From Hydrolagus colliei (taxonomy: Eukaryota), in the NCBI GenBank assembly GCA_035084275.1, contig CM068753.1, forward strand, positions 558,001-622,000: a stretch of 64,000 nt of DNA, given 5' to 3'. Position numbers and translations under genes: made by a program. Below the pieces are notes generated by a model. That model searched no databases, had not been told where the DNA came from, and saw nothing but the letters and a program-made list of their open reading frames with translations. This document shows, in pieces, positions 1-54,685 of the stretch. Within the stretch, counting starts at the first letter, position 1. Every line of letters begins with the position of its first letter.

Positions 1-62
1 AACATCTTAGCTAAGTACCCTTGGTGCGAGGTGAGCTGCGTCTCATCATTCATCGTGATTCA
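1..62 (-). CDS. Candidate first coding exon of an unidentified minus-strand gene (MNDETQLTSHQGYLAKM..., runs off the window)
   Basis: Minus strand has a pyrimidine-rich acceptor (ccattttagctttcag), then TGA-ATC-ACG-ATG (ATG at 53, A at -3, in-frame stop just upstream), open to position 1. Protein not recognised. Confidence 0.4.
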
Positions 63-2497
63 CTGAAAGCTAAAATGGATGAACATGTGAAACGACAAAG
101 ATGATGAAATTCAACCAGGCATTGGCAGGGCAACCCTTGGCCATATGTTATCAGCGCTGTAGGTAACTACATACGTAATCCCTCACTCCTAAACGTTTTG
201 TTTCTGCATATTGTTTTGATTTAAAAGGCTCTCACTGGCTCACCTCCCAAACAGCTCACAAAGTTGGCTGAGAATGCGAGCACAAACAGGTAACAGAACT
301 GCAGGAAGAAAATCTAGCCAGGATTCCCAATGGATGGCTGACAACTATAACACTGAGCCATTCAGATCTGAAGTTCAGAAATTTAATTCTGGTTCGGTGT
401 GCTTAGGTAACCTTACATTGGACACGAGTACAAGGCATCAGCAATTGGTCTCAATACACCTGGCTTGAGGTGGAAACAAATTGGAACTGCTTATCGCTAT
501 CTAGCAACTGTTGCTGGATATTGTGTGGGTTTGTGTGTATGATGGGAAGATAAGTGAGTTTTGCCAGCAATGCCAGGAATACAACAATTTTTTTTAAACA
601 AAAAATTGGCCATTTACTTCATGGCTGTTCTGGGACATTGCCGTGCGCACATTTGACTACAATTACACGGTCATTACACTTCATGGTAAAATCCTGTGAA
701 TCCCTTTGAGACATCCATTCAGGATGACGTGGTAAGGAGATATGTCAAATGCAAGGATTATTATTATTATACGCGTGATTGCAAGGACGTTGGGTGAGGG
801 CAGGATTGGGCTAAGCTGTGCAAACTCCTGAGCTTAACCATCCTCCCAGTAACGACAATGTATATGAAGTGAAGGACAAGTCTTGACTTGGCAAATGGAG
901 GAGGCCTGGTGCCTGTAGGATGTAAAGCAGCAGCAAACAGCGATTCCACGAGAGGACAGGCAGGGAAGAAACAACAACTTGTAGTTTATATAGCCACCCC
1001 TCGAGGCAGCTTTGCAAGGCAAGTCAACGTCATCATCCCCGGCAAGTCAATGCCTCACGACTTCCACGCTTCCGCACCATTCCCGCTTCACATCCGATCT
1101 CAAGCTCGCCTCACCTCGCGGATTTATCGCGTCACTCGAAGATTTAGAACGTGATGAACCGTGTGGGGGAAACATGAACACGGGGTTCAAGTATAAACGT
1201 TCCATTGGTAATAATGGGTTCTGCGGCTTCCCAGAGCTGGGCTAAGTGACTCTCAACAAAGCTAGTTGTTTACGTTTTGGAGCGATTCCAATGACATAAT
1301 TATATAATGATGCCCGAGATCCTCATGATTATAGCTAAATAAGTCCTGAGAGACGCTGTCTTGCACAATGCATTCACACTGCAGTCTCCCTATCCCTGCT
1401 AGAGTAACAGGGGCAGTAGATGGGAGTTTCCCAGCCTATAATTACTGATCAGCTACTTATACAATAAAACAGTCCTTTTCTGTTTAACTCTTTACGGGTC
1501 CAGAGAAATTTGTGAATCAGCCCGAGGAATTTACTGTGCGTCAATAATCAGCGAGATCCACCATAATTGGATGTTTTTAGTAACCGTAATGAAATAAAGC
1601 ACCAAAGGTAACTTTTCTTTTGATGCCAGTCAGTTCCCAGAGACCGGAGGTCCCCATCACAGAGGAATGAATTCATTCCGATATTCCATTGCAAAACATG
1701 TTCACCTAGGAGCCAGTCCAGGGATGCTATCCCTGTTTAGCTACAGCTGCACAAAAAATCATTTGACATTTGATAAGTCAGTGAAATACGTAACTTATCC
1801 TTATAATATTAATAATCATCCTTGCATTTGAGATAGCGCTTTTCACATCTTCTAAACGTCACAAAGCACTTCACAGAATCGACTGTAAAGTGAAATTGAC
1901 TGTACATATTGTCGGCGAAACGCGGCAGCCAACTGCACACAGCTTCCTCTTGAATAGCACAGATCTCTCTGTCTGCTTCTACCCTAGATTCCAGGAGCAA
2001 TCCTGATTGTTCTGATTGCCTGCCGGAAATGGTTCTCAATGACTTTTTAAGTTTCTACATCTAAATGTCAATAAGATCAAGAGTCTCCATCTTGACTCCT
2101 ACCAGTATCTTCTCGTCTCACAAGCTGACCACATGGACCTGGATGGATGCACAATTCATCTCACAGAGCTGGAGTGGAACCTTGTTCAACACCCAACTAT
2201 CTCTCAAACCCTACATCCAGGCTCTGTCTAGCTCAGGTTTCTCTCATCTCCCATCTCCATCATTAGCTCTCCACAGACACATCCTCCCACTATATAAGGT
2301 CATCTAAAAATATTAAGGTGTTGTAGTGATTTTGAACTGACTGATTAAATAAAAGCCTAAACGTAATTCGCTCAATCCTTCCAGCCTCACGTTAAGTGAA
2401 ATTCCATAACTGATGTTTCCCCTCAAGGATGAGCTGGACTTCATTAGGTTCCTGGGTTCAGCTTCACTTGGGGTCTCTCCCACTCCAAGTTTTAAAT

Positions 2498-2667
2498 AGT
2501 GTCAGAGTGGGTTATTGTGTCAGGGCAGGTAATAGTGTCAGGGAGTGAGTCTGTATCAGAGCTGGTGAGTGTGTCAGCCTGGTGAGTGTATCAGGACAGG
2601 TGAGTGTGTGTCATTGCTGGTGAGTGTGTCTGGGCTGGTGAGTGTGTCACAGCAGGTGATTGTGTCA
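2498..2667. repeat. About 18-bp minisatellite (core GGTGAGTGTGTCA)
   Basis: Roughly 9-10 degenerate tandem copies read directly. Confidence 0.75.
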
Positions 2668-3577
2668 ATACTGTACTTATCGAAAGTGTTAAGCGTAGTT
2701 CTGGTCTCAGTGATGGCAATAGAAAACAATATTTTTCAATAAAATTCAGCGTCAGGTTACTCTGTGATCTCTGGTGTGTCACTGTGTAAGCACGGAACAG
2801 TGGGAATCTGTGTGGTTTTGAGGGCTCAAAGCCAGAAACCCAAACTCTTGCTGTTCTCTTCTTCACATTTAATTTCAGCTCACTCACAAAAGGAGCCTCT
2901 GTGCCTTTGGGACAATGCAAACCTTTGCTGGGAATGACTTAACAAGCTTGAAGCCTGATGGAATGTCACTTAAGCCTGTTCAGAAACATTATGGGGTGCT
3001 TTGATAATAACGAGACATTCCAGTCCCCAGGTTGGTTTCAAGTTCTTTATTAGCCTGTGTTAAAAGAGTGAACTTCAAGAGAAAAGTTAATTGAACATAG
3101 CTCCTATACAGACGGCTAAACACACATGCACACAGATTAATTCACGTCTGATGTTTTATATCATAATCCATTTACCTGGCACTATGCAGAAGATGGCTCT
3201 TATACAGAAAGGTCAACCACTGACAATGTTTTTGAACCAAAACACACAGCCTGATAAGAGACACTTGACAGGTAACAAAAGAATTAACAAATGAACCAAC
3301 ATGACAGTGATTGTCCCTTGCTCCTGGGCTGGGCTACAGAAGATCTCTGGATTCTACTTGGAAAGATCTGGTTTGAAACAGCAACTTTCAACTGAAACCA
3401 AATTGAAAACACCCTGTTTTTTCCCTCCCAATCTTCAGGAAGAATGCTGGATGGGAAACAAATCTATGTTTTTTTTGGTTGGGATAGGGGGGCGGGGGGG
3501 GTGTTGATGGAGGTTTGCATTCTACAAAAAGCGGTGTGGATTGAAGTGATCAATTTGTTTTTGAGGGATTACTAGTG

Positions 3578-3666
3578 GAGTAAGGAAACTTGCCCAAGGT
3601 TTTGCCCTGGCCTGCTGGGAATTGAACCCAGGTCTCTCACTCTAACCACTGAGCTACAGGACTCCA
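3578..3666 (-). mobile_element. tRNA-derived SINE, 5' part
   Basis: Reverse complement of GGAGTCCTGTAGCTCAGTGGTTAGAG...GGGCAAGTTTCCTTACTCCAC. Confidence 0.8.
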
Positions 3667-6611
3667 GGACTTACTAATGTCGCTTCTTCAAAAAAAAATC
3701 TCTGAGGTTAGTCAAACCAGAACTACCCTTTCTGAACACATGTTCAGATGGACAATCACACTCGGATATGATGGAGCTGTGTGCCAATGCCCACTGTATG
3801 CACTCACACATGGCAAGGTTCCATGGTATGGCTACACACATCACTGTCAGGGAGGAAGTGGGGAGAAGATTGGGCAACAAAAAGAATTTCAGTGAATTGT
3901 ATGGGTGTTCTCAGCACAGCTGGCTGCTTTCAGTGGTGCAGAACAAGAAAGATGTGAAGCTCAGCTACTGGAGAGATCAGGCTGCCAGCACTCAACTGCA
4001 AGTTGTTGGCCAATAAAATGTGACCTACACAAACTCTCCCATCAGCGTTTGGTCCTTGGAACCAAGCAATCTCCAGAATAACACAAGGCAAAGATTAGCA
4101 GCTGGACAGCAGGATCAAGGGTTCCTTCACATATTCAGATCTCTCTTCTTTTCACTGCCGATCCTGCTGTAACTGGCAATGGCTTTTGAGGAAGCAGTTT
4201 TGAACAGGGACGTAGCTGCCTTGCGGGGACTGGGCAGATGCTAAGCCTTTTTGAAGCTTAATATCCAGTCACTGAATAGAAATGCATGACTCAAACGAGC
4301 TGCATAAAACTAGCATCATTTCAGAAATCACTTGTGAGGGAATAAAGCCTCACAATGTGCTTACACCCTGGGTGTGAGCCCTGTTAGGAATTACAGTTTT
4401 GTCATTTTCTATTTGCATATAGATAGACATCTAAATTACAGAATTTCTCAAGAAATGGCCTTTCCCATTTGGGCTGATTTCCCAACCACTCTGTGTTGTC
4501 ATTTATTTCACTTATTTGAATCTATGACCTCAGTTGATTAGTACGGAAGTTACTTTCTTCCCTGTGTGTGTGTAAAAAGGTCCTGTGTATACCAGCCTCA
4601 ACAGTATTGTCCATCAACCCTCCATATCATGGCATCTGTTTTTACTGCTTCATAAAAATACAAAATAAACTAAAAGCAATCCAAATTACATTAAAATCTG
4701 GAATAAAACTAAAAAATGCTGAAATCGAAAGGCGTTAAGACTGTCTGCAAACTCCTGGAGGGGAAATAAGTTGAAGGGAGGGAGAAAATTCCAATGTGCC
4801 TCTTAGGGATATCACGGCACAAAGCTAAATGAGATTTCATTTCTCTTTGGAACCAAAAGGAGACTAAAGCGCCCTCTGGTGCACTGACACTTACAGATCA
4901 GTTGCCAACACTAGATTTTGTCTGGCAAGCACCTAAGCGGTAAAACTGGGCGCTGTAAAAAAATAGGTCAAGAGTGAAGACAGTCAGTGGAAAGCTCTGC
5001 GATCAGGCTATCCTCAGGTGTATCAGAGATACAAGCCTCACATTCTAAAATAGTCAATTGTCTACGTTAAACTGTTGGTCTGACCGTGTGTTGATGTTTG
5101 CGCGATGCCGCTGTGGGCAACTGCTGGCGGCATTTCGCTCATGACATACAGTCAATCACTGTATAATATATCTGATGAAATGCTTTGAGGTGCCTCAACC
5201 ACATGATATGTCGGTGCAGCAAGTGCAAGGATTATTATTAATGCGTAGAGATCAGGGAAGAGGAACCCTTGCTGACTTTTTCTCTTCCTAATCAGCCCCA
5301 GGTGCAATGAGGCCAATGGCAGCCTCTCTGCCAGACAAGGAGCTCATCCAGGGGATCAAACCTGAGATTAGCAGGTCTGCTTGACTACTTCTGCGCAAGT
5401 CACCTCCTTCGCCTGCTAGATTACATACCGGGTGAGGAATGCTCTCCCACATTACTGAGAGGGTCAGGATTCAAAACAAATACTGAAGGTTAAATGCTCC
5501 ACTTGGACTGCCTGCAAGATAAACAAGATAATTCAGGGCAAGATTTATACTTCCCTCAATCTGTTATTTCACCCACCTCCACCCCCAGCTACCTCAACAC
5601 CAAACACAATCCAAAAATATGTTGCTGACCCAGTTGGACAAGGAAAAGTATTATCTGATCAGTACTGTACAGTAGTAGGGGAATCCCAAAAGCTGAATGC
5701 TTGGTGTGGTTTTACTTGCAATGCTCTTCGTTCACAACTAGATGGTGCCCATTGATCAGTTTGGGGCTCGGCTAAATTTTGCCCCGATCCAGGAAAACCT
5801 CAAGTGCTTTCAAAGATTCAAGTGCAAGATCACAATGAAGGGCATTTAAAGTTCATCCCATCTCATCCTTCCAGAACATTCACTCTATTTTTTCCCCGCC
5901 CGCCCACCCTATCCAGTCCCCCCACCATCACTGCATCAAGCATTTAAATTAAATTAGTCCAATGTCCTAAGAATTCTTCTAGTTTTGATCTGTTTTACTT
6001 TTTCAATCCCATTAAAAAAATTTACACACCTCTATATCATAAGATAAATCCTTGCCTTTGATGCAGCCCTTTTCATATCTTTCAGACGTCTCAAAGCTTC
6101 TGAAGGCAAAGATCAAATCGTTGCTCATAGTTTCACGGAGGCTCCGGGCGAGCATTGCGGCCTGTATCAGTTATTAAACTTTATTGAAGTACAGTATTAT
6201 GCATAACAAATACAGAAGAGTCAATCCTCGTCGTCCGTATGTAATGTGTAATATCCTGTGAAGCGCTTTGATGGCTCCTGTATTTATTTGTAAGATATTG
6301 TCGGATGCAGATTGGCAGCTACGTTCCCCTACAAATCAGGCATTGTAGTGTATCCTGTACAGTACCTTGATACATCCTCCCGATGCGAAAAGCGCCGTGA
6401 GACATCTCAATGACATGATAAGGTACTGGGTCAAAATGCAAGGTTTATTATTACTGATATTATTCAACAAGGTGATCAAATTAAAGTCGAAAACAAAGGC
6501 AGTGAGAATAATGATAATAATCCTTGCATTTGATTCAGCATCTTCTCACGTCTTCGAGACATCTCACAGGATACACTGTAAAGTGAATTGACCGAATATT
6601 CAATACACTAG

Positions 6612-6680
6612 GGAGTCCTGTAGCTCAGTGGTTAGAGCGTCTGCCTCGCAAGCGAGAGACATGGGTTCCGTTCCGGGCAG
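6612..6680 (+). mobile_element. SINE tRNA-like head only, running into a polypurine tract
   Basis: GGAGTCCTGTAGCTCAGTGGTTAGAGCG...GGTTCCGTTCC with A and B boxes; SINE body absent. Confidence 0.75.
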
Positions 6681-7270
6681 TGGGGAGAGGATTGGGGGGG
6701 TGGGGGGAGGGGGGGGGGTGGGGGGAGGGGGGGGGTGGGGGGGGGGGGAGAGAGAGGGAGGCAGGGGGGAGAGAGAGGGAGGCAGGGGGGAGAGAGAGGG
6801 GGGGAGGCAGGGGGGAGAGAGAGGGGGGGAGGCAGGGGGGAGGGGGGGAAAGAGAGTGGGGGGGGAAAGAGAGGGGGAGGGGGGGAAAGAGAGGGGGGGG
6901 AGGGAGTGGGGAGCGAGAGTGGGGGGGGAGAGAGGGGGGGGAGGGGGGGAAAGAGAGGGGGAGGGGGGAAAGAGAGGGGGGGAGGGAGAGGGAGAGGGGG
7001 GGAGAGAGGGGGGAGGGAGAGGGGGGAGGGAGAGGGAGAGGGGGAGGGAGGGAGAGAGGGGGGAGGGAGAGGGGGAGGGAGGGAGAGAGGGGGGGAGGGA
7101 GAGGGGGAGGGGGGGAGGGAGAGGGGGAGGGGGGGAGAGGGGGAGGGGGGGGGAGGGAGAGGGGGAGGGGGGGGAGAGGGGGAGGGGGGGAGAGGGGGAG
7201 GGGGGGGAGAGGGGGGGGGAGAGGGGGGGGGAGAGAGGGGGGAGGGGGGAGAGAGGGGGGGGGGGGGGGG
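6681..7270. repeat. About 590-bp G/A polypurine low-complexity tract
   Basis: Almost only G runs interrupted by AGAG; source of the spurious Pro-rich and Gly/Glu/Arg-rich ORFs. Confidence 0.95.
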
Positions 7271-7489
7271 TAACCGGCTGTGGCCGCCACCTCACTAAGT
7301 GGCTGAAGGGGGGTGGGGGGGGGGCAGTTGATTGGCTGCCTGTATAACAAGGGCCTTTGTTGCCGCTGAGGCGAGAGATGGGCAGTTGTGTAGATATATA
7401 TACACACACGCTCACACACACTCACACACACAGAGAGAGAGGGAGATAAAGTGACCAATCAATCCTGAACAAACCCAGCTCTCTCCCCT

Positions 7490-7790
7490 CCCTCTCTCCT
7501 CGCGGTGCTGGACTATGAAGGCTCAGTTTGTGAAGGTGTTGACCCGTTACGGTAAACCGGCTCCTCTTTCATTAACGCCATCTTGGGAGAGGGGGCGACC
7601 GTTGACGCTCCGCGTGCGTGCGTGTGCGTGCTCGCTCGCGTGTGACGTCAACGCGTGAGCTGGCGACGTCAATCGTTCATCACAAACCTTTGTCTCTCTG
7701 TTCAAACCCATCACCCACGTGATTGATTGATTGATTGATTGGGCGGCTTCACGCCCAATTTGGGCGTTTTGTTCTTGTTCTTGTGTGGAT
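7490..7790. promoter_or_regulatory. CpG-island promoter, probably minus-strand and possibly bidirectional
   Basis: CpG-dense. YY1-type CAAGATGGCG on minus strand (7576-7585), full CRE TGACGTCA (7643-7650), second CRE-like site (7664-7671), E-box CACGTG (7716-7721), CCAAT boxes (about 7738-7760). Confidence 0.7.
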
Positions 7791-9461
7791 GAAGATTGGG
7801 GGTGTGGAAGGGGCTTTTGGGCTACTTCCCCCCCCACCCCCCCATCCCTGAAGACCTTCCAAATCCCATTTCATTCCTGAAGAGTTTTCTCTTAACACAG
7901 TTTTAAATGTACTCCCAAACATTAATTGGTCCCTCTACTCATCACCCACATCAGGCTATGTGGGGCTACTTTCTGGGATAGTCCTTGGTAGATTTTAGAC
8001 TACAAATGTATTTTAATTCCTACAAACCCTACCAACCTCCCCCCCCCCCCCCCCCCCACTCCCCGTACCCAACCTTCAATGTTCCCCTACAAATTAGTCA
8101 TTATTCTTTCCAGAATATCTAATGCATCCTTTTGATGTGGTAGGTGCTATAAACAACGCAAGAATTAGGATTATTAATCTTTGCCTGATTGACCAGAGTC
8201 TGACAGAGGCAGCAGTGTTTGAGGGGATACCTAAAGGTTTTGTATGTATGATGATATGGTATTGCATGCACACAATAGAGTATTGTAAGAGTATTGTAAA
8301 ATGTAAAATCACAGTTACCAAGCATTTAGGTGATTATGAGCAATAACGGGCTCAGTCACTGATGAATTGAGTTGAGGCTTTTCATTATGGCTAACCCACG
8401 AAGGTAGGAGTGCATCCCTATTGTTTAAAACTGGATTAGAGTACTGAGCCGTGCCATTCTATTAACATTAAACTGACGGCACTAACTTAATAATAATTTT
8501 CAAAGCTCTGGACTTGACCTGAATAGCTTGCAGCTGTGCAACCTCTGGTGATACCAAATCACTAATCTAAGGTAGTGTTCAGAATGTGACCTATTGCAAT
8601 GGCTTGACCTGGAACTCTTGTGTAATGGTGTTCATGCACAGGGCATTGTGTAGGTGGGTCTGCTTATCTAATAGGGAAGAGCTGACTTGCTTGTTTTGTT
8701 TGAATTATTATTATGTGCCTGAAGGCACTGACTCGCAGTGAAGAATGTACAGAACTGTCTGGAAAAGGCTGTTTCAGTTCATCTGACCAGAGTCATAGTA
8801 AGTTTCTTTATCGTAGCATCAACTGCCCTCTGGTACCCTGCTCTAATGGGTACTCTTCATGTGTCAACCTAACTAGATCACTATTTTCAGTAAGCTATTC
8901 CACACTCAAAATGATGTTAATCAAGCAGCCAATCAACAGAAACAATAACAACAAACACAAAATGACACTTGTATAGCGCCTTTCACGTCAGGAGGACGTC
9001 CCAAGGAGCTGGACAGTCATTGTTTCAGGCACGGGCTGGGGTCGGGGACGGCGAGGGTGGAGGGAAAGGGGAAGATTTGGGGTGACCGATGGGACCGTCA
9101 ACCACAAACATGTTGCAAAGAGTTGCCATGATTTTAACTGGATGTTTCGGTACATATAAACAGTTATTCACTGAACATAATCTCCTGGTTAGTAATGCCT
9201 ACAATGAACTGAGTTTGTTCTTTAATTGGTGAACATCCCCCACTGTCCTGATCCCAACCACCAACTAGGGTGCGCATCCCTGACGTCCAGCATCTTGGGA
9301 CGTCCTCCTGGTTTGTGGGTGTATTCATTGTATATCTATCTCTAGGTTGGCTACTCAAGTAAAGCATTGCAGTCCACCAAAACTGAGTTTGACCTTAATC
9401 TCTGTTTTTGTTTTTCACAAGGTTTGCATCCAACCCTAACTGCTTCTTATTAAATCCTTAG

Positions 9462-9600
9462 CTCCCAGGGGCTCTATTGATGGTCAGAGCTCTGATATTA
9501 CCGCTCTGTTTCGCTCCAACTCGCCGTCTGCGGAGAAGGGCAGGAAGAAAGGGAAAAAGAAAGTTGACAAATCTGCGATTGGAACACCAGCTGACTTTCA
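9462..9600 (+). CDS. WASP-family gene exon: basic region and first half of CRIB
   Basis: ctaac branch point, ccttag acceptor, CA/gtaaga donor. Reads PRGSIDGQSSDITALFRSNSPSAEKGRKKGKKKVDKSAIGTPADFQ versus N-WASP KKKRLTKADIGTPSNFQ. The 5' boundary is uncertain: a second AG at 9421 is out of frame. Confidence 0.8.
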
Positions 9601-10025
9601 GTAAGACCAATTAACTTTAATTCCCTAATTACACAATCTCCAATGAGGGGGGGGGTGTGTGTGGTTAGAAGCAATGCGGTGACAGGCATGCCACAAGCTG
9701 TGGCATTTGGTCTGGGTGGCTAGTGCTGTTTTAAATGAGGATGAACTTTAACTTGCTCTAAACTTGATCCTTCCAGAACATCAATCCTACCATCTTCCCA
9801 TTTAGCTGCTCATGGTCATGAGTGTTAGATGTTGATTGCCCTCTGTGTGAAGAAATAGTTTTTTTTTGGTCCATCTGAAATGTTTCATTCACAACTCTAT
9901 GAACCTGTGCTCATTTGGTGTATTGATTTATTCAACATGAAGAGGAATTGATTGTGAATATATGTACAAACTCTGCTCATATAGCCTGTCCATGGATGTA
10001 ATCTAACTATATTTTTCTTTCTTAG

Positions 10026-10068
10026 GCACCGTGGTCATGTGGTGTGGGACCGAGAAAAAGGATTTGAT
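10026..10068 (+). CDS. WASP-family gene exon: second half of CRIB
   Basis: 43-bp exon ttag/.../gtaaga, HRGHVVWDREKGFD (N-WASP HIGHVGWDPNTGFD); same size and phase as I recall for human WAS exon 8. Confidence 0.9.
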
Positions 10069-10335
10069 GTAAGACCCTGAGCAGTTAATACTATATTAAT
10101 TGAATAATGTTAGACACAGGATCTACTTTCTTTGTATACAGTAATGCGACATTGAGCAGAATGTTATGAATTGTCTAGTTGAGAATACCACAAAGAAAAC
10201 AATGTACAGTATTGAATGTAGTTACAGGCTAAGGGCTGCTGTTAACACCCTAGTCTGGGTTCTGATGCCTCTTATGGAAAGTTTCCTTGCAAGAATGGGC
10301 TTGTGACTTTGTTTTTCAATATTTGGTATTTTTAG

Positions 10336-10489
10336 CTTAATAATCTGGATCCCGAGTTGGCAAAACTCTTCACTCAAGCTGGTATCAATAAGTCCCATTT
10401 GAAGGATAAAGATACAGCTAAGATGATCTTCAATGTTCTCGAGAATAATGGAGAAATAAGCCCTGTGCAGAAAGATGCCAAGCAGAAAG
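10336..10489 (+). CDS. WASP-family gene exon: GBD autoinhibitory helices
   Basis: 154-bp exon, [51 protein letters not shown] (N-WASP [40 protein letters not shown]); phase-1 donor G/gtaaag. Confidence 0.9.
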
Positions 10490-10605
10490 GTAAAGAAACA
10501 CTTTGTACTGACGCATACTGTGGCGTATCCAAGACCTAAATGACCCAATGGCCACAACAATCAAATGCATTCAATGGAAAATCATTTTATTCCTCGCTGT
10601 TTGCA

Positions 10606-11221
10606 AACAACAACAACAAATTACATTTATAGAGCGCCTTTCACGTCGGTAGGACGTCCCAAGGCACTGTACAGGAGGCGTGTGACCTGAGCTGGGAGGG
10701 GAGTGTTTGGGAAGGGGTGAAACACGAAGGGGAGGTAAAAAAGTTCGGGGTGAAACAAATGGCATGATCAAAGAGGAAAGTCTTCAAACCGGCCTTGAAA
10801 GAGGAAAGGGAAGAGACGAAACGGAGGGATTGAGGGATGGCATTCCATAGGGTGGGAGCGGAGAAACTGAAGGCCCGGCCTCCGATGGTGGGGCGGTTCG
10901 GGCGGGGGGCTTGGAGCAGGCCAAGTCCTGTTGAACGGAGGGTCCGGGTGGGCGTGTAGGGGGAGAGTAGATCGGTTAGATAGGGTGGGGCAAGGCCGTG
11001 TAAGGCCTTGTAGGTGAGGACGAGGATCTTGAACTCGATCCTCTGGAGGATGGGGAGCCAATGGAGACGGGCGAGGGTGGGGGTTATGTCGTTGCGGAGG
11101 CGGGTGCGGGATAGTACATGGGCTGCAGAGTTTTGGATGGCCTGCAGCCTGTGAATGGAGGAACTGGGGAGGCCGACGAGGAGAGAATTTCCATAGTCCA
11201 GCCGTGAGGTGATGTATGCAT
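10606..11221 (-). mobile_element. L2-clade LINE, 5'-truncated young copy
   Basis: Open ORF2 C-terminus (SRLDYGNSLLVGLP...LHWLPILQRIEFKIL...GGRAFSFSAPTLWN), 3' stem-loop GGGACGTCCT..GACGTGAAAGGCGC and (TTG)n tail. Confidence 0.92.
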
Positions 11222-11346
11222 GCATAGAATTCCAAAGAAACAAATCTGTGCTTTGTTGCAGTTAATATTCTCGCCTCGACCACTGCTTCAGGGCGAATGT
11301 GTTCATGGCATTATCAATTGATTTTATTGGAATGAAAATACCAGTT

Positions 11347-11630
11347 AACAACAACAACAAAATTGCATTTGTATAGCGCCTTTCACGTTGGGAGGACGTC
11401 CCAAGGCGCTGGACAGTAGGTGTTTCAGACCCAAGCTGGGGTTGGAATCGGGGAAGGGTGGGAAAGACGGGGGTGACTGATGGCACTGTCGAAGAGGAGG
11501 GTCTTGAGGTGGGACTTGAAGGAGGCAAGGGAGGAGGTGAGGTGGAGGGATTGCGGGATGGAATTCCAGTGGTTGAGGGAAGAGTGGCTGAAGGCTCGCT
11601 GGTCGATGAGTAAACAGCGGGAGGAAAACA
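11347..11630 (-). mobile_element. L2 3' fragment
   Basis: Same 3' end and (TTG)n tail; SLASFKSHLKTLLF motif. Confidence 0.8.
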
Positions 11631-11726
11631 TAACAGCAGGTTTTTTTTTCCAACGCCTTGGGACGTCCTAGTGACATGAAAGGCACTGTAGAAGTGTCTT
11701 TTTTTTATTTTCCTTTTCAATTCTAG

Positions 11727-12009
11727 AATTAAAATTACCACACAAGACTGTCGAACCAGGTGCCCGACTAATGGGACCTCAATCATTTGCAGCTCAAAGA
11801 TCACATCCGCTGCTATTCCTATTCCCGCTGCTCCCCCATTACCTGGCAATGCACCTCCTCCGCCTCCACCACCACCAACACCGTTGGAAACAACTCCCTT
11901 CGGTGCGAGCAAACCAAGCAAGTCTCAAGAAGATTCTGCTAAAGGAACTGAATCTGGTGGCAGAGGTCAACTCCTTGCATCGATTCGACGAGGCTTTTCA
12001 TTAAAGCCA
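11727..12009 (+). CDS. WASP-family gene exon: proline-rich region and WH2, with apparent frame break near its 5' end
   Basis: ttctag acceptor, CCA/gtaagt donor. AAIPIPAAPPLPGNAPPPPPPPPTP...GGRGQLLASIRRGFSLKP is a WH2 motif. 283 bp is 1 nt short of keeping frame from the phase-1 upstream exon. Confidence 0.8.
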
Positions 12010-13065
12010 GTAAGTATTGTTTAATGGAAACACGCCTCGGTTTATCTGCTTCAAATATTCCTGGGTTCAGAGTTTTAAAATCCGCTTTCAGTGTCTATTT
12101 GTAGATGACACTCTCTGCCCGAATGTTGAACTCTGCAAACTTGTGTTATCCTCTGTGATCTGTTTAGCAGATTATCACCAGGCACAGTGTTGTATGATAT
12201 ATCCTCTGGAGGACATGGTATTCAGTATGCCAGTGCCAGAATTATTAATAATACTACAGCTTTCACCCAAATGTTCTCTTCTGAATTGCTCCAAACAAGA
12301 TCATTTCAAAATGCTATTTAGCACAATTGCCTGGTTATTCATTTTATGTCAACCATGTTGAGATGGAATACATAGATTAAAAAAAAAACGAATGTCAATC
12401 TAATTATACTGGCGGGATGAGCGGAACTGGGGAAATCGGTAGCCCTTCATGATGGAGTCATGCTTTTTTTGTGTGTATCTTGCGTCAGTTTCTCTGTTTT
12501 ATTTGGCACTTGGGAATATCAAGATGGATATTATTTATGTGTACTTGTATTTAAAAAAAAACTGAGATGGCCCAGAGTTAACCCTTTTCGTTGACTAAAT
12601 TGAATAGTCATTAGGCTCAGCTATAATCAACAACAATACAATCACATTTGTAACACGCCTTTCATGTCAGGAGGACATCCCAAATCACTGACAAGTTGGG
12701 GATCAGGATGCAGATGGATAGTTGGAGATTAATCCCTCAAATATAGTGTAGAGCTGTGCCAGTGGCTAGATTATCAGCTATTGTATAGTCAACGGAAAAT
12801 GACGGACTCAATTTGTGGTAACTGGTGAGATTTACACCTTCAGAATGGGATTCATCGCGAAAGGACAAAATCAGCAATGTTAATTTCATTTATTCCCTGC
12901 TATTACTTTAACCTGCGTTTATTACCCCTTCTCCACCCCACCCCCCATCTCGATTCCACACTTTAACTTAGACGCACATGCGGAGGGTTGGGACATCACA
13001 CTTGCTCATGTGCTTCGGCAAACTGTCTATTGGCAAAGCTCTGCCTACATTTGAGGGATTATAAC

Positions 13066-13340
13066 AACAACACCAAACAACAACTTGGATTTATACAGCG
13101 CCCTCCACGCCAGACTGCGTCTCAGAGCGCTTCCTGATAACGGATCCCGGGGCCGAGCCAGGAGGACTGGGGAAAAAACGTGACCAAAAGCGTGGTCAAA
13201 AAGAACGGTCTTTAGCTGTGACCTGAAAATAGGAAAAGAGGGGGCGAGGTGAACGGAGTTCCAGAGCCTCGGGGGGTATAGTGGCTGAAGGCACGGCCGT
13301 CGAAGGTAGAACGGAGGATTCGGGGACAAGGAGGAAGCCA
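13066..13340 (-). mobile_element. L2 3' fragment, second subfamily
   Basis: FRSQLKTVLFDHAF motif; tail GAGACGCAGTCTGGCGTGGAGGGCGCTGTATAAATCCAAGTTGTTG; related copies at about 27357-27525 and 34138-34197. Confidence 0.75.
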
Positions 13341-13418
13341 GACAAGGAGAGTGGATTATGGCTGAGTGTAATGATTTTAACATAATTTTTTTTAAATGGA
13401 CCATTTTGAATTTTTCAG

Positions 13419-13521
13419 GTATCTCGTGATTCAAAACCACCTACAATTTCTGCTGAAGATGATATTGTGGGAGCCCTTAAAGACGTCATAGAGAAGAGGG
13501 CTAAAGTCCTTCTCACTCCGG
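13419..13521 (+). CDS. WASP-family gene exon: central (C) region
   Basis: tttttcag acceptor, G/gtgagc donor. VSRDSKPPTISAEDDIVGALKDVIEKRAKVLLTP (WASP GLVGALMHVMQKRSRAI). Confidence 0.88.
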
Positions 13522-13946
13522 GTGAGCCAATTATGTTCTTTTTTTCTTTTGGTTGAACCCTATATGTTTACCTGGGGTTCTGATGAATGTATCTGTTGGA
13601 GGAAAGCTTTATCTCCCCTCTCCCCATTCGCCAGCTCATCGCTTCTGAAGTGTATTGTCGTCCGTGCAGACCTGAGATTGGCTGTCTTTCCTGTCTTCAT
13701 AGCACAAAAAGTGCGTCGGAACTTCACATCGACTGAGTCACTCGAGTTTCACAGTTATCCTTATAATAGTGAAACTCAATATAATAGTGGTTTGGTGGTA
13801 TACCAGAACAGCAACATAGTCTGTTGTCATACCCATAGAACCAGCAAGCGAATACAGAGGCTTCTCATGAAATACTAATTGTGCCCTTTAACAGTACCTT
13901 ATGTCCAAATACTGTACACTGTTTCACAGCCAGTTTACTATCAAGT

Positions 13947-14437
13947 GAATCCTGTAGCTCAATGGTTAGAGCACTTGCCTTACAAGTGAGAGACCTGGGC
14001 TCCATTCCAGGTAGGTCAGGGCGAAACCTAGGGCAAGTTTTTCCTGACTCGACATGCCTGGGGGAAAAAAAATTAAATACTAAATCGGTCACTTCAATCC
14101 ACGACAAAACACAAAATACTACAGATGCTGGGAATCTGAGACAAAAACAAAAGTTGCTGGGGAAACTCAGCAGGTCAGGCAGCGCCCACAGAGAAAGGAA
14201 AAAGAGTCAACGTTTCAGGTCTGCAAACCCAAACGCCTGCAACCCGAAACAACTGCAACAGTCGTGGATTGAAGTCGTGGTTTTCAACTCACGACTGTTT
14301 GTGGGTCAGTGCAGCGTGCAATTGTCTGCTGCATTTCTCCCATAAGTATACAGTCGATTCACATTATATTCTGTGAAGTGCTTTGAAACGTCTAGAAGAC
14401 GTGAAAAGCACTGTATCAAGCACAAGGATTATTATTA
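13947..14437 (+). mobile_element. Full-length tRNA-derived SINE interrupted by a Penelope-like fragment (about 14106-14260)
   Basis: Head, body and (ATT)n tail present; insert CAAAATACTACAGATGCTGGGAATCTG...CAGCAGGTCAGGCAGC matches the element at 44853. Confidence 0.8.
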
Positions 14438-14952
14438 CTATATTAGTTGGCCAATACTGCAGCTAGTTGTACAAGCAGAGTCTCGCCAAGAGGTGACTCA
14501 CTAATTCTTCTTGAGAATTATTCACGAAGAGACTGGTGGAAACATCCTTCTCCTTTGTAGAATCTTTAACGCTCACCTGGACGTGCAAAGGGACCTCAGT
14601 TTTTGATCAATATCTGAAAAATAACCATATGAACTGGAATATTGGCATTTAAATAATCTCTGCTCTAGGTATGGGGCTTGACGACGATGATAATAATAAT
14701 CCTTGCTGTTGATATTGCTAGTCACATTGTTCAGAGGTCTCGATACACAGAATATATTGGGGCAAGTGGATTGATTGACTTTTATGCGCAAAACACGGCC
14801 GTCAATTGCACACTGAAGTTTTCCCATTAACAGTCAATGTGAAAACAAATGAGGATTTCTCACAGATTCTTGGAATGAAGTGGGGAGAGCAGGGGGAAAA
14901 AAAAACGCAGTCCCATTTTAAGTTGAAGTTAATCTATTTTTCCTTCTTCCAG

Positions 14953-14987
14953 ATGATGTCTCTGACGATGAGGAGTGGCACGTTTAA
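14953..14987 (+). CDS. WASP-family gene last coding exon: acidic region with the Arp2/3-binding Trp
   Basis: cttcttccag acceptor, (D)DVSDDEEWHV-stop, phase 1 matches the previous exon. Confidence 0.88.
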
Positions 14988-15463: not shown

Positions 15464-15469
15464 AATAAA
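15464..15469 (+). terminator. Polyadenylation signal of the WASP-family gene
   Basis: AATAAA about 480 nt after the stop, preceded by TGTA and T-rich elements. Confidence 0.6.
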
Positions 15470-18555: not shown

Positions 18556-18601
18556 ATGAGGGACTGGAGGTCGGTCACGTCCGCCTACTCTTCGAGCAGA
18601 G
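18556..18601 (+). CDS. PFKFB4: PFKFB4 distal alternative first coding exon (MRDWRSVTSAYSSSR)
   Basis: ATG in a CpG island, strong donor GAG/gtaagg, phase 1, in frame with exon 2 at 50327 (gives ...[14 protein letters not shown]). Confidence 0.65.
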
Positions 18602-19217
18602 GTAAGGGAGAGAGTGGGGGAGGGGGGGGGAGGGAGGGAGGCGATGGCCGACCGTACTGACTCCAAACGGTTTTTTTTAAAAAAAGAGAGCCAGGTTCTG
18701 AAGTAAACAAGTGCGGTTAAGAGGACATGGGGGGGGGGGAGCTCCTGAGAGAGGGGGCAGAGGCCATTCCTGAAGGAGGGGGGAGTGTGTGTGTGGGGGG
18801 GGGAGGGGAGTGTGTGTGGGGGGGGGAGGGGAGTGTGTGGGGGGGGGGGGAGTGTGTGTGTTGGGGGGGGTACCTCCTGAGGGGGGGGGGAGAGGAAACG
18901 GATGAATGAGACGGATTTCTTGAGTGGTGGGGGGGGGGGGGGGGGGAGAGCTCCTGAGTGAGAGAGATGGGTGGGGGGGGGGGGGGGAGATTTCCTGAGG
19001 GAGTGGAGGGGGGGGGGGGGTGAGGGGTGAAGCCACACTTGTGTGAGGGTGGGGGGGGGGAGCGGAGCTGGAGGTCGTGGAGTTCATGTTCAGGGTCAGC
19101 CTGTGACGTTGACTTGTTGTGAGTGAGTGGGGAGGGAAGGGGGGGGGGGGAGTGGAGAGGAAGGAAGGAAGGAGATGCGTGGGCCGAGGGGTTGGTGGTG
19201 GGTTTGTGTGTGGAGGC

Positions 19218-19680
19218 GGGGGGGGGGAGAGAGGGGGGGGGGGGATAGAGAGGGGGGGGGAGAGAGAGGGTGGGGGAGAGAGAGGGTGGGGGGGGGGGGG
19301 AGAGAGATTGGGGGGGGGGGGAGAGAGAGAGAGTCGGGGGGGGGGAGAGAGAGGGGGGGGGAGAGACAGAGGAGGGGGGGGGGAGAGAGAGAGGGGGGCG
19401 GAGAGAGAGGGGGGGGGGAGAGAGAGGGGGGGGGGGAGAGAGAGGGGGGGGGAGAGAGAGGGGGGGGGAGAGAGAGGGGGGGGGGGAGAGAGAGGGGGGG
19501 GGGGGAGAGAGAGGGGGGGGGGAGAGAGAGGGGGGGGGGGGAGAGAGAGGGGGGGGGAGAGAGGGGGGGGGGGAGAGAGGGGGGGGGGGGGAGGGAGAGA
19601 GACAGAGAGGGGGGGGAGAGAGACAGAGAGGGGGGGGAGAGAGAGAGTCGGGGGGGGGGGGAGAGAGAGACAGAGAGGGG
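19218..19680. repeat. About 460-bp G/A polypurine low-complexity tract
   Basis: Repeated G7-11 runs separated by (AG)3-4. Confidence 0.95.
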
Positions 19681-20343: not shown

Positions 20344-20498
20344 NNNNNNNNNNNNNNNNNNNNNNNNNNNNNNNNNNNNNNNNNNNNNNNNNNNNNNNNN
20401 NNNNNNNNNNNNNNNNNNNNNNNNNNNNNNNNNNNNNNNNNNNNNNNNNNNNNNNNNNNNNNNNNNNNNNNNNNNNNNNNNNNNNNNNNNNNNNNNNN
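20344..20498. other. Assembly gap (155 N)
   Basis: Run of N. Confidence 1.
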
Positions 20499-23799: not shown

Positions 23800-24451
23800 C
23801 AACAACAACAACTATTTAAACTTATAAATTTAAACTTATAAAGCACCTTTCACGTCGGGAGGATGTCCCAAGGCGCTGTACAACAACAACAACAATTTAC
23901 ATTTATAGAGCGCCTTTCACGTCGGGAGGATGTCCCAAGGCGCTGAACAAGAGGCGTGTGACCCGAGCTGGGAGGGGAGTGTTTGGGAAGGGGTGAAACA
24001 CGAAGGGGAGGTAAAAGAGTTCGGGGTGGAACAAAAGGCACGATCGAAGAGGAGAGTCTTCAAACCGGCCTTGAAAGAGGAAAGGGAAGAGACGAAACGG
24101 AGGGATTGAGGGATGGCATTCCATAAGGTGGGAGCGGAGAAACTGAAGGCCCGGCCTCCGATGGTGGGGCGGTTCGGGCGGGGGGCTTGGAGCAGGCCAA
24201 GTCCTGTTGAACGGAGGGTCCGGGTGGGCGTGTAGGGGGAGAGTAGATCGGTTAGGTAGGATGGGGCAAGGCCGATAAGGCCTTGTAGGTGAGGACGAGG
24301 ATCTTAAATTCGATCCTCTGGAGGATGGGGAGCCAGTGGAGACGGGCGAGGGTGGGGGTTATGTGATCACGGAGGCGGGTGCGGGATAGTACACGGGCTG
24401 CAGAGTTTTGGATGACCTGCAGCCTGTGAATGGAGGAACTGGGGAGGCCGA
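23800..24451 (-). mobile_element. L2 LINE young copy with duplicated 3' tail
   Basis: 23880-24451 is nearly identical to 10606-11176; an extra copy of the 3' stem-loop and tail lies at about 23800-23880. Confidence 0.92.
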
Positions 24452-32085: not shown

Positions 32086-32642
32086 TTTATTATTGTTTTT
32101 TCCCTGTGAGATTATTAATTGTCAATATCATGACAAGATATGAATTGCAAATCAGTAAGGAAGTAAGGAACAAATCTGTTGAACTTGTAACATTTTGACT
32201 ATTTTAAGGCAGAGCTGCTTCAAATATGTTGAAGAATTGGTAGAAGCAACAAAGAAAATTGTTTCCAAGTTGTTTTCAAAATGATGATTCAAAGCGATTA
32301 AACAGCAAAGCTATAGCACCCTTCACGTGGGTAGCATCTTGGAATGCATAAGTGGTGGAGCTTGTCGCCAAGCTGGGGAGAGAGGGGTGGTGACTCTAGG
32401 CATAGATAAATAGGAAGGTCTTCAGGTGTGACCTGAAGATGGGCAAGGAGGGGTCAAGGCAGAGGCATTGAAGTAGGTTGATCGGGTTGTAGTGGCTAAA
32501 ACCACAGCTACACAGAAGGTGTAGTGAAAGGTTTGAAGTGATCGGGCAGTGCCAGCAGAAACAATAAGATAGTCTTTACTTTGCTTCCTCTGGAGGTGTA
32601 GAGGAAAGCATCTCTAATGATGGTTACTCCATGACTTCAGAG

Positions 32643-33063
32643 TAGTGTCCGGCGATATCGATATATCGGTTATATCGGTATAATTTTTCATATCGATATG
32701 CCGATATTGGAAATTTAAATATATTGGTATATCGAAAAATTCGGTATATTTTTAAAATCGATATATCGCAAGTATTGGTATATCGTGTCTGGCGATATAT
32801 CAATATATCGGTTATATTGGTGTAATGCAAACTTTTTCAACTTACCTTGCATTACAAAACTCCTGGGCCTAGAGCACGGAATGCGCACATATCAGAATAC
32901 GTGTGCACACTGAAATCCGCGCGCACCTCTGAATGCGCGTGCACTTCCGAATGCGCGCGCACGCGCAGTACAAAAAAAACCGGCAATATCGATATGTTGG
33001 TATATATCGAAATGAGCCCACCGATATATCGACAGCGGAAAATTTCCATATCGACAGACCCTA
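32643..33063 (+). mobile_element. Non-autonomous hAT-type MITE (421 bp)
   Basis: Ends TAGTGTCCG...CAGACCCTA, perfect 8-bp TSD CTTCAGAG, many subterminal CGATAT/ATATCG motifs. Confidence 0.9.
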
Positions 33064-33494
33064 CTTCAGAGGTAGTATTGATGTTTCATTTCTGGCACTA
33101 AATTTACTCAGTGGATTGAGGAAGTTATGTTTTATTGCATTTACTATTCAGTGCTTTCTCCAATGTAAATCCTGATGTTTGGCAACAGTGCTGGAAAGAA
33201 AATATGTCTTTAGTGAAGGGTGATAGATAAGGCAAACATTATTATAGAGAGTATTTATTTAAAAAAAGGAGAGAAATTAGGGAAATAGCAGAAAAGATTC
33301 AACTGGACGAATGACTTACTCCTGTTCTTATAGTTCTTGAGAGGTAATTTTTGCTGATGCTTCTAGAGGCTTTGGCGACCCTGACTAGAGTATAACCTGT
33401 AGCGCCCAAAGCATTCTTTCTGGTTCAATGTATATTCATCTTAATCTAGAGGGAGAATTCTAAACATTCCTGCATAATTTTAATATCTTTCCAG

Positions 33495-37128: not shown

Positions 37129-37410
37129 AGGGTACAATGGATGCTTCGTTTGATTTTGATCAAACTAAAGTTGAGGTGTCAGTATGGATAGGATTGTGTT
37201 GGAAAAAAATCACGTGGGCTGCATTCTCTTCATAAAATAGTTTTAGGGTCCAGAATCGAACCCGGATCTGGCTGCAAACTCCTCCATTTAAAACGCTACT
37301 GGGTGAAGCAACTCACAGGTAATTGCTAAAGTCAGACTGAGCACATTCACATGGTAATAACATTGTGGTTATAGAGTGGTTGATTCAGCACGTTTTGTTA
37401 CACTGATAAA

Positions 37411-37745
37411 TAGTGTCCGGCGATATATCGGTTATAACGGTATAATTTTTCATATCGATATGCCAATATTGGAAATTCAATATGAAAAAAAAATTGGTAT
37501 ATCGGTATATCGTGTCTGGCAATATATCAATAATATCAGTATAATGCGAACTTTTTCGACTTATTTTGTCGCCGACATTGCAAACCTCCTGGACCTAGAG
37601 CATGGAATGCGCGCGCATATCGGAATGTGCGCACACCTCCGAATGCGCGTGCATGCGCAGTATAAAAAAAAGACAATATCGGTATATATCGATATGAGCC
37701 CACCTATATATCGATATTGGAAAATTTCCATATCGACGGACCCTA
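37411..37745 (+). mobile_element. hAT-type MITE, second copy (335 bp)
   Basis: TAGTGTCCG...CGGACCCTA with perfect 8-bp TSD CTGATAAA; homologous to the 32643 copy. Confidence 0.9.
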
Positions 37746-38689
37746 CTGATAAACAAGTGCGCCTATAAAAAACACTCCTAGCCGCTGCAGTCTGGCTTTC
37801 TTCCCGTCTGTGAACTTATAGTAATTTTGTTGTTGTGGCTTTTCTAAGAAAGCCATAGAGGTAACACTGAAATATAGGGGAAAGAGCAGTGATAACAGAT
37901 GTTTCTGTGATTTCCATGATGAAGGTTAACTATAATGGTAAATGCACCTTTGCTCACTGCTGCAGGGAACCGTCCCAATTGTTCTCATTATGTATGTAAT
38001 GCATCATCGACTCCTCTGGTTTCATCATCTAATGTACTCCACCTATTTCTTTCCTTTGTCTTACATTTCCCGCAAATCCCTCCAAAATAAATAATAAATT
38101 GATCAACAACTTGGATTTGACAGTAACCGAGACATTTTGACACAAGATCTTTTTAAAACTGTTTCTAAACTTTTGTTAAGAGTAACAATCAAACAACGAC
38201 AATTTTCGCTGCAAAGATATTTTCGAAATGTTTAAAATTCGTCTGACTACTCGATTGCACACAGTACGTTACAAAGTGCACATTTTGTTTTGGTAATAGT
38301 AGCTGTGAAAGTACAGGGATGTGTTTACCAGACTGAATGCAGTGATGCGTCACAGCGTAGCATTTTACCTGTCTCCTTGTTTCGATGCTTGTCAGTAATT
38401 GCCCCGCAAATGTTCACAGTGTTCTCGCTTCTCGCATGCTGCCTGTTTTTGCAGTAGCAGGTTTCCTATCGTGTGTGCACCAGCGCAGTTGATTGGTGAA
38501 CGCTAGCACACTCTCCACTGATTGGGTGGGTCACTTTATAACAGCCACTAGCCATGATTTCTACATGTGATTCCCTGAATATGTTTACCAGGCCAGAAAG
38601 AAATTGAATAAAGAGTCTTGTGGGTCTCATCTCTTTTTTTTTATATGGGTTAAGAATAGGGGAGGTGAAAAACAAGAGTTCAATGTCCA

Positions 38690-50265: not shown

Positions 50266-50658
<393 letters not shown>

Positions 50659-50977
50659 TGACCAGGTCCATGCCTCCATTTTCTAGCAGGTTTCGCTCAA
50701 TATTAAACAGAAGTGGGAACATTGTCTAATTCTTCTTCCTCCCCTCCCTCCACCCCTATCCATTGGATCTGGCCAATGCCGGTTAAAGCAAATGCCGGAT
50801 ATTTGGACGAAAATGAAAAAATATATAATAATTGCAATGCATTTTTACAGATAAATTCTGGTTAATCGAATGCGGACCTTTTTTTTTGCAATGCTGGTTA
50901 TATGGAATTTACGGTTGATCGGTGTGCCGGATAAACTGGCTTTTACTGTAACACAATCATTATTTTACTCCTCACAG

Positions 50978-51074
50978 CTTTTAATGTTGGGCAGTATCGT
51001 CGTGACCTGGTGAAGACCTACAAGTCCTTTGAATTTTTCCTCCCTGACAATCAAGAAGGTTTGAAGATCCGAAG
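50978..51074 (+). CDS. PFKFB4: PFKFB4 exon 3
   Basis: [31 protein letters not shown]. Confidence 0.97.
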
Positions 51075-51134
51075 GTAATTCACATACCTTAGTGGAAATG
51101 ATACTCACCACTTGCTCCCTTGACTCCCATACCC

Positions 51135-51612
51135 ACCTCCCTCCTCATCTTCCCCCATCCTCGCCAGATTCCATTGGCTCCCCATCGTCCAGAGGATTCA
51201 ATACAAGATCCTGGTCCTCACATTCAAAGCCCTCCATAGGCTCCCTTTGCCCTACATCTGCGACCTACCTACCTGCCCGCCCCCTCCGTTTTTCAGGCTC
51301 CAGCCTGCTCCGCATCCCGACCTACCCCCCCCACCACCACTGGTGGGCGAGCCTTTAGCCATTCTGCCCCCAACTTGTAGAACTCCATCCCGCAGTTCCT
51401 CCACCTTGCCCCCTCCATGGCCTCCTTCAAGTCCCACCTCAAGACCCTCCTCTTCAACGGTCCCATCAATCACCCCAAATCCCCCCCCCCCCCTTTCCTT
51501 CCACCATCCCCAACCCCAGTTTGAGTCTGAAACAATGACTGTCCAGCATCTTGCGACACCCTCCTGACATGAAAGACGCTATACAAGTGTAATTTTGTTG
51601 TTGTTGTTGTTG
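51135..51612 (+). mobile_element. L2 3' fragment
   Basis: HWLPIVQRIQYKILVLTFKAL remnant and (TTG)n tail. Confidence 0.85.
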
Positions 51613-51688
51613 TAGATGACTTGTCTGTTTGCTTTTTGCAGAGTTGCTTAAAGCGTTCATTCCTTTCCCAATTGTTTTATTTTTGCAG

Positions 51689-51755
51689 ACAATGCGCATC
51701 ATTGGCATTAAATGACGTTAAGAAATATCTCAATGAGGAAGGTGGTCAAGTAGCC
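51689..51755 (+). CDS. PFKFB4: PFKFB4 exon 4
   Basis: QCASLALNDVKKYLNEEGGQVA. Confidence 0.96.
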
Positions 51756-52327
51756 GTAAGTTGAATATTGCCATCTATTGATAGGTGAATATTGTTTGAT
51801 GTGCTGGTAATGCTTTGAGGTTGAACAGTCTGAACAAAATCGTGTATAAGTGTCGCACTTTAAGGGGTGGGAAGCATGTAAGCTTTTTTTTGTTGACTCT
51901 TTGAATGGAAAATTCTCTCAACTGGTTTAAGCAGAAAATATGTCAGAACTGATGTTTGTAATTGCATCTTCTGAAACTGCTGGTCTTGAAACCAACAGAA
52001 TGTTTTTCCCGATACACTCCGCACATTGCAGTTTGTCTGATGCAGGTAGGGAAGGAACGGTTATGTTTTCAGTCTTTGACCACAACAGCAAGGCCCCAGT
52101 CCTGATTGTTTCACCCACAAAACACACAGTCTATTCACTTTACAGTATATTCTGTGAAGCGCTTTGAGACGTCTGGAAGACATGGTGAAGCGCTATATCG
52201 AATGCAAGGATTTTTATTGTTGCTTGACTATAAAAACACAAATCCACTCTTTGATAAATATTTATCGATGAGTTGCCCTTTGTATAAAAGCAGAAGATTG
52301 TTCTAATGAGCAGTTTGTTTTGAATAG

Positions 52328-52426
<99 letters not shown>

Positions 52427-53839: not shown

Positions 53840-54343
<504 letters not shown>

Positions 54344-54511: not shown

Positions 54512-54685
<174 letters not shown>

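Follow-up and report, generated by a model that had tools for sequence, protein, structure and literature searches.

What is the WASP-family gene that stands beside PFKFB4 in the chimaera Hydrolagus colliei without any recognisable WH1 domain, and does it still work? We analysed one stretch of 64,000 nucleotides (nt) from contig CM068753.1 (assembly GCA_035084275.1, positions 558,001–622,000 of the forward strand), which is called the window hereafter; coordinates are positions in the window, and features lie on the plus strand unless stated. A preliminary description of the same DNA had proposed a third, fast-evolving paralogue of WAS and WASL without WH1. The best overall explanation, which we hold to be rather probable, is that the locus carries a third WASP gene of jawed vertebrates, most likely a duplicate from the two rounds of whole-genome duplication (2R). 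Its product would be independent of WIP when intact, and the copy in the window is probably disabled or decaying.

All six exons listed in the preliminary description exist, and their AG/GT ends were verified at every position. A search with the 154-nt exon singled out one protein of 11 candidates, Callorhinchus milii XP_007888605.1 (P0001, 291 residues), which serves as the reference below. The basic region and the first half of CRIB are encoded at 9462–9600 (139 nt; 71% identical to P0001 residues 35–79 by tblastn), and the second half of CRIB at 10026–10068 (43 nt), where two family-invariant residues are altered, G to V and P to R. The autoinhibitory GBD helices follow at 10336–10489 (154 nt; 75% identical to P0001), with a Pfam PBD match at an expect value (E) of 0.0027 and a Phe where the conserved GBD Tyr stands; the basic, CRIB and autoinhibitory (WAID/GBD) parts of the WASP subfamily are thus all present. 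A linker, a short poly-Pro tract and a single WH2 (Pfam E 1.8e-6, in the downstream frame) occupy 11727–12009, 283 nt when counted from the strong acceptor and not frame-preserving. The central (C) helix lies at 13419–13521 (103 nt), and the last coding exon, 14953–14987, encodes a short acidic tail with Trp and the stop; an AATAAA polyadenylation signal is located at 15464–15469, as had been reported. The parts of poly-Pro and VCA are all there, in frame through a weak acceptor and in Callorhinchus, out of frame through the strong acceptor. The GBD and VCA of the Callorhinchus orthologue match WASP and N-WASP structures in the PDB. WH2 is present once, and the tandem WH2 of WASL is absent. 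The 43-nt and 154-nt lengths are presumably those of WAS exons 8 and 9. What has to be corrected is the extent of the gene, as ATG-bearing exons also lie upstream of the six, at 7515–7551 and, as an alternative candidate, at 8713–8797.

No WH1 domain accompanies these parts. One WH1 profile, made from 142 fetched sequences, was run against 3308 six-frame fragments of both strands of the 64 kb; its best match had E 1.0. As controls served four divergent WH1 domains kept out of the profile, cut into 12 pieces of exon size; all 12 were recovered, at E 7e-7 or lower. Because the profile stayed blank where the controls were recovered, the absence of WH1 within the window is real. With 120 proteins as queries, tblastn gave no match below E 0.09 in the window apart from the known exons, and the earlier failure to see WH1 exons thus extends to the whole 64 kb.

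The sequence indicates an independent start for the gene and speaks against a 5′-truncated leftover, because a first exon common to sharks sits in a CpG island. This CpG-rich stretch, 7480–7780 (GC 0.55, CpG observed/expected 1.18), had already been noticed as a promoter; it is the putative promoter and first-exon region, with CCAAT-like boxes 5′ of the ATG. The first coding exon, missing from the preliminary description, is placed at 7515–7551 (37 nt, 12 codons plus 1 nt); it encodes MKAQFVKVLTRY, and its GT donor, in phase 1, suits the exon that follows. Scored against four WH1-less N-termini of the shark type, this peptide ranked first among the 1172 ATG-started 12-mers of the window (score 31; runner-up 23.75; mean −4.4, standard deviation 6.6). 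Three WH1-less relatives start much like 7515–7551, two of them being from Scyliorhinus and Chiloscyllium. The Mustelus model starts differently and falls back into line with the other shark-type proteins right past the MKAQFVKVLTRY-type segment, a point that would fit an exon junction at the same place. A second candidate first coding exon, 8713–8797 (85 nt, phase-1 donor), corresponds to the N-terminus with which Callorhinchus isoform X1 is annotated; residues 1–29 of P0001 match 8713–8799 with 69% identity (tblastn E 1.5e-8). When this exon is read as internal, its in-frame acceptors are weak (7–8 pyrimidines of 20). Both species share a Met-Cys start and a second Cys at position 12 in this alternative N-terminus, a start pattern also seen in RGS4 and other lipidated or Cys/N-degron proteins.

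Two further ideas on the N-terminal peptide were tried. A remnant of WASP exon 1 was rejected for the first exon of the window and also for sharks (tail fraction 0.44–0.73 among 1054 null peptides). The amphipathic-helix idea gained no support beyond a lead, the hydrophobic moment of 0.45 being reached by 9% of null peptides; the four shark-type starts gave 0.29–0.38. Different from the chondrichthyan start, amphibian-type starts are similar to the last part of WASP exon 1, six of seven at a tail fraction of 0.004–0.03. The frog N-termini that score as such remnants are those of P0180, P0230, P0235, P0243, P0272 and P0324.

These data bear on the possibility, also raised in the preliminary description, that the locus is a 5′-truncated relic, and on its variant in which the transcript takes in WH1 exons from outside the window, to the left of its edge. 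The visible sequence upstream of the basic exon amounts to 9.4 kb, and four members of the third lineage do keep WH1 (P0136, P0137, P0140 and P0141). Opposed to this are the ATG exon in the CpG island, which matches shark starts in the right phase, the Callorhinchus RefSeq protein without WH1, and the blank WH1 search; moreover, none of the 122 open reading frames (at least 32 residues) at 1–6700 gave a Pfam match at E 0.01. We regard both versions as very improbable.

Callorhinchus supplies the direct orthologue of the gene. XP_007888605.1 is 72% identical over 145 domain columns; it has Pfam PBD and WH2, and, like the window gene, the same domains, no WH1 and an N-terminus equal to exon 8713–8797. 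Unlike the window gene, it has an open poly-Pro frame, keeps the CRIB Gly and Pro and the GBD Tyr, and sits on a much shorter branch. The entry is an automatic annotation ('wiskott-Aldrich syndrome protein-like isoform X1') that names neither a function nor a family. Among 1.84 billion representatives, a profile search gave 784 hits, with the best 150 listed, and a later relative search gave 335 hits from 8000 scored candidates, with the best 120 listed. Among the matches listed, named WH1-less proteins came from the sharks Scyliorhinus, Chiloscyllium, Rhincodon and Mustelus and from the frogs Pelodytes, Spea, Pelobates, Xenopus laevis, Hymenochirus and Ascaphus; no mammalian or bird member was found among the best 120 and best 150. 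In 20 WH1-less vertebrate-type proteins, chosen by eye and including some fragments, CRIB begins 20–89 residues from the start, and 19 of the 20 start with Met. P0144 belongs to a 59-member chordate cluster with PBD in 98% and no WH1 listed. Pelobates and Hymenochirus each carry WASL plus a WH1-less gene.

Trees were built from GBD and VCA. Among the 57 rows chosen, P0134, P0195, P0229 and P0234 were dropped before the first tree, which left 53; the WAS-like and invertebrate labels on some of the rows were assigned by likeness. In the 53-row tree the window and Callorhinchus proteins join the sharks and the WH1-bearing P0140 with a support of 93/87. Over 200 bootstraps this chondrichthyan group was placed with WAS in none and with WASL in none, and with the frog/lizard group plus P0136, P0137 and P0141 in 113. 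After seven long or partial rows had been removed post hoc (P0164, P0170, P0191, P0217, P0225, P0235 and P0260), the 46-row tree contained a third clade of 18 rows (98/93) besides WAS (98/95) and WASL (89/90).

Several points weigh against a third clade. The alignment has only about 150 columns. In the 53-row set the approximately unbiased (AU) test gave p 0.084 when the chimaera pair was placed with WAS and p 0.069 when it was placed with WASL, and the chondrichthyan group with WAS was only just rejected (p 0.046). The strong support for the third clade appears only after the post hoc removal, its branches are long and fast-evolving and may attract each other, and P0140, which bears WH1, nests among cartilaginous-fish rows (97/87), which clouds the history of WH1 loss. 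In addition, no named chondrichthyan WAS or WASL was found for comparison, this genome not having been searched. In a rival reading, the cartilaginous-fish gene would belong to WAS or WASL, as a degenerate orthologue or as a duplicate confined to the lineage, and long-branch attraction together with convergent WH1 loss would have produced its likeness to WH1-less tetrapod proteins. The AU values of 0.046–0.084 leave room for this, as do the union with the bony-vertebrate group in just 113 bootstraps, the exon 1-like starts of frogs that chondrichthyans lack (0.004–0.03 vs 0.44–0.73), and a single WH2, as in WAS. On the other side stand the 0/200 bootstraps with either WAS or WASL, the 98/93 clade of the trimmed tree, and a neighbour that is PFKFB4, not the PFKFB1 that shares Xp11 with WAS; we consider such an origin distinctly unlikely. 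The third-paralogue proposal of the preliminary description is therefore upheld in part: WH1-less relatives with their own starts occur in cartilaginous fish, frogs and lizards, the gene falls outside WAS and WASL in both trees, and PFKFB4 adjoins, but with AU values of 0.084 and 0.069 the proposal is not proven.

The neighbour was identified as follows. A PFKFB4-type gene extends over 40004–62952, with its first exon at 40004, 12 internal exons at 50327–59115 and the last exon near 62893–62952; joined together, the internal exons give 1262 nt free of stops. When five of its exons were compared with the PDB, three matched best to 1BIF–3BIF (28.5 vs 14.7, 57.9 vs 38.1 and 117.5 vs 115.7 bits), two of them by a wide margin, and the other two narrowly preferred PFKFB2 or the 1K6M enzyme. 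We take 1BIF to be the rat testis isozyme PFKFB4 and 1K6M to be PFKFB1, and the exon matches agree with the PFKFB4 neighbour named earlier. PFKFB1–4 are among the families that mark the four GATA123 paralogons, according to the part of PMC2857956 that deals with them. The gene would thus lie in the PFKFB4 paralogon, as judged by one neighbour and at this locus only; the synteny rests on PFKFB4 because no Pfam match was obtained in the reading frames left of the gene (1–6700). Together with the trees, this location suggests the 2R origin.

How does the gene relate to known WASP proteins? Like WASP (WAS) and N-WASP (WASL), it has the basic region, CRIB/GBD, poly-Pro, WH2, C helix and acidic Trp, and its GBD is about 45–55% identical to theirs. 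Different from them, it has no WH1, very short poly-Pro and acidic tracts, a separate tree position and another PFKFB neighbour; N-WASP has two WH2 where the window gene has one. WASP proteins without WH1 were named WAWH (type I) by Kollmar, Lbik and Enge (2012, PMC3298513), and the passages we consulted describe them mainly from amoebae, with one in Anolis as an isolated case. That class is defined by architecture: only WH1 is missing and the protein has its own start, which is the situation in Callorhinchus fully and in the window copy apart from the frameshift described below. Those passages of PMC3298513 contain no shark, chimaera or frog member and no third 2R duplicate. The visible N-terminal half of the Anolis WAWH, in the supplement of that paper, is very close by eye to P0139 and P0229, and P0139 groups with the lineage of the window gene. 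Likeness to the amoebozoan WAWH is expected to be convergence, because the vertebrate group sits inside the vertebrate WASPs; our trees held no amoebozoan rows.

Teleost S-WASP, also a divergent vertebrate WASP, shows the opposite loss in the parts of PMC3298513 that treat it: it keeps WH1 and is without the basic and CA regions. By eye, the WH1-bearing P0136, P0137, P0140 and P0141 resemble S-WASP, which suggests the same gene with the opposite end lost, and OrnWasp_C of the PMC3298513 supplement resembles P0137 and P0141, again by eye only. The same paper, in the portion available, reports that WASP was lost in birds; P0168, P0159, P0163, P0182, P0183 and P0187 are WAS-like proteins of a GC-rich type, avian by guess. 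Within the third lineage, the conserved GBD Tyr is kept in four of four WH1-bearing rows and in four of 19 WH1-less rows, being replaced in the other 15. This Tyr is a Src-family switch in WASP. WH1 was probably lost more than once, because four members keep it and because the amphibian-type starts show a likeness to the end of WASP exon 1 that the chondrichthyan ones lack.

The homology and a structural model allow a mechanism to be proposed for the intact protein, as in Callorhinchus. The cartilaginous-fish version would begin with a 12-codon basic exon in place of WH1 and would act like N-WASP minus WH1. Its GBD is predicted to fold onto the C helix and keep VCA off; Cdc42 at CRIB and PIP2 (phosphatidylinositol 4,5-bisphosphate) at the basic region would release this autoinhibition, the single WH2 would supply G-actin, and the C and acidic-Trp regions would activate Arp2/3. 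Since no WIP would stabilise or place the protein, the basic N-terminal peptide may, speculatively, aid membrane binding. The Callorhinchus model, from an 80-row alignment, had a mean predicted local distance difference test (pLDDT) score of 63.6 and a predicted template modelling (pTM) score of 0.43, with GBD and C helix at about 90. It superposed on autoinhibited WASP (1EJ5) over 97 of 107 residues, including both GBD and C helix (Z 10.9, root-mean-square deviation 5.5). The fit is consistent with autoinhibition and must be discounted as independent evidence, because AlphaFold knows that fold. N-WASP without WH1 stays largely autoinhibited, and Cdc42 and PIP2 activate it through the basic region, as stated in the passages of PMC2150699 consulted. 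From the model and this behaviour, the product of the intact gene most likely activates Arp2/3 under the control of Cdc42 and PIP2, independently of WIP, and has few SH3/profilin sites. The window copy would depart from this scheme, as its strong splice path runs into a frameshift and terminates early, ahead of VCA, and its conserved residues have changed faster than those of Callorhinchus.

Does the window copy still encode such a protein? The 154-nt exon ends in phase 1, so the next exon must have a length of 2 mod 3; from the strong acceptor at 11727 its length is 283 nt. The six exons therefore do not splice into one frame, a point absent from the preliminary description. The 5′ part of 11727–12009 matches P0001 residues 145–170 in one frame and the poly-Pro/WH2 part matches in another; the frameshift relative to the Callorhinchus orthologue maps to about 11804–11815, within an imperfect repeat with an 18-nt period whose first copy is one C shorter than the second. 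Through the strong acceptor, translation meets a premature stop at 12002–12004 and gives a 216-residue product without VCA. The stop lies 108 nt before the last junction, which makes the transcript a target of nonsense-mediated decay under the usual rule. Skipping of the exon leaves a 127-residue product. Only a version from a weak downstream acceptor, 11747–12009 (263 nt), keeps the frame and gives a 257-residue protein with VCA. This acceptor is the only in-frame AG of the seven between 11690 and 11900; it has nine pyrimidines of 20 and A at −3, compared with 17 and T at −3 for 11727, and its pyrimidine count equals the lowest among 17 true acceptors. Because of the frameshift, the function of the window copy is doubtful.

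Change in the window copy is also fast. Its end branch is 0.32 compared with 0.045 for Callorhinchus in the 53-row tree and 0.36 compared with 0.034 in the 46-row tree, 7–10 times as long. At majority-conserved columns the window copy has 14 derived changes, among them the family-invariant Gly and Pro of the CRIB region, and Callorhinchus has five (p 0.064, two-sided). The same direction was obtained with 12 of 13 outgroups, which are related and non-independent (p 0.0015 to 1.0, five of them under 0.05). Comparison of conserved and variable columns gave no clear signal: identity between the window copy and Callorhinchus was 44/57 vs 20/27 in GBD (p 0.79) and 29/40 vs 11/22 in VCA (p 0.099).

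Decay is opposed by four observations: no further stop or indel breaks the 794 coding nt, the core of the C helix is near-identical to that of Callorhinchus, a single missing base in a short C run would account for the shift, and the rate test is borderline. The same third-lineage gene may be functional here, the shift being an assembly error or present in one allele, or the 11747 acceptor being used, with a WH1-less Arp2/3 activator of 257–264 residues as the product. Besides the short C run and an acceptor that restores VCA, the VCA identity at conserved columns and the intact promoter, first exon, splice sites and AATAAA speak for it. The assembly is not indel-rich, because the 12 internal exons of PFKFB4 stay open over 1262 coding nt without an indel and, over 572 nt, 26 substitutions but a single gap separate two copies of a repeat, though one error could escape controls of this length. 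Acceptor 11747 is as weak as the weakest true one, and the faster change at invariant residues does not depend on the frameshift. On balance a functional copy is unlikely, though clearly less so than the other alternatives above. Decay, which would entail loss of function, is the reading we prefer with fair confidence: the window copy is probably decaying, with an assembly error or the weak rescue acceptor as the alternatives.

The architecture itself is not new: it was named WAWH in Kollmar 2012, as far as the consulted parts of PMC3298513 go, and the genes are already in RefSeq as 'WASL-like'. In the open literature we found, beyond Kollmar 2012, no account of a third WASP clade of vertebrates that would unite cartilaginous fish, frogs and Anolis, with subscription journals and bioRxiv supplements outside the scope, and the elephant-shark genome supplement gave 0 matches. 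What the locus holds is probably an unrecognised third WASP paralogue, here in a likely damaged copy. More tentatively, and with slightly more doubt than belief, we suggest that a third 2R WASP gene beside PFKFB4 was dismantled in various ways: a new, basic 12-codon exon took the place of WH1 in cartilaginous fish, WH1 shrank to an exon 1 remnant in frogs and in lizards (among them the Anolis WAWH), teleost S-WASP lost the end that binds Arp2/3, and the gene is dying in this chimaera lineage. If so, Xenopus, a main system of WASP biochemistry, would have a natural WIP-independent, Cdc42-gated Arp2/3 activator, often without the Tyr switch. A third, widely kept paralogue would also unite scattered WASP oddities, and the gene inventories of Xenopus, lizards and sharks would need correction. 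WH1–WIP binding stabilises and places WASP, and most Wiskott-Aldrich missense mutations fall in WH1; the question of how WASP works in vivo without WIP, and of what replaces it, could therefore be approached through a natural WH1-less paralogue. The window copy is of lesser importance here because it may be a decaying allele.

Some further features of the window were recorded. An ATG-started stretch of 46 nt at 18556–18601, with a phase-1 GTAAG donor, lies in a second CpG-rich region; it is a candidate alternative first exon of PFKFB4, 21 kb upstream of the usual one. At 6694–7270, 19213–19667 and 20344–20498 there are long G/GA-rich low-complexity tracts, just 5′ of both CpG regions, and one 155-base N gap. 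Three related CpG-rich repeats of ATATCG/CGATAT units, probably a small DNA transposon, occur at 32640–33070, 37410–37750 and 56240–56430 in PFKFB4 introns. At 10610–11230 and 23880–24450 there are two 95%-identical 3′ fragments of a retroposon, presumably L2-like, whose minus strand carries a long open frame; one of them sits in the intron before the frameshifted exon.

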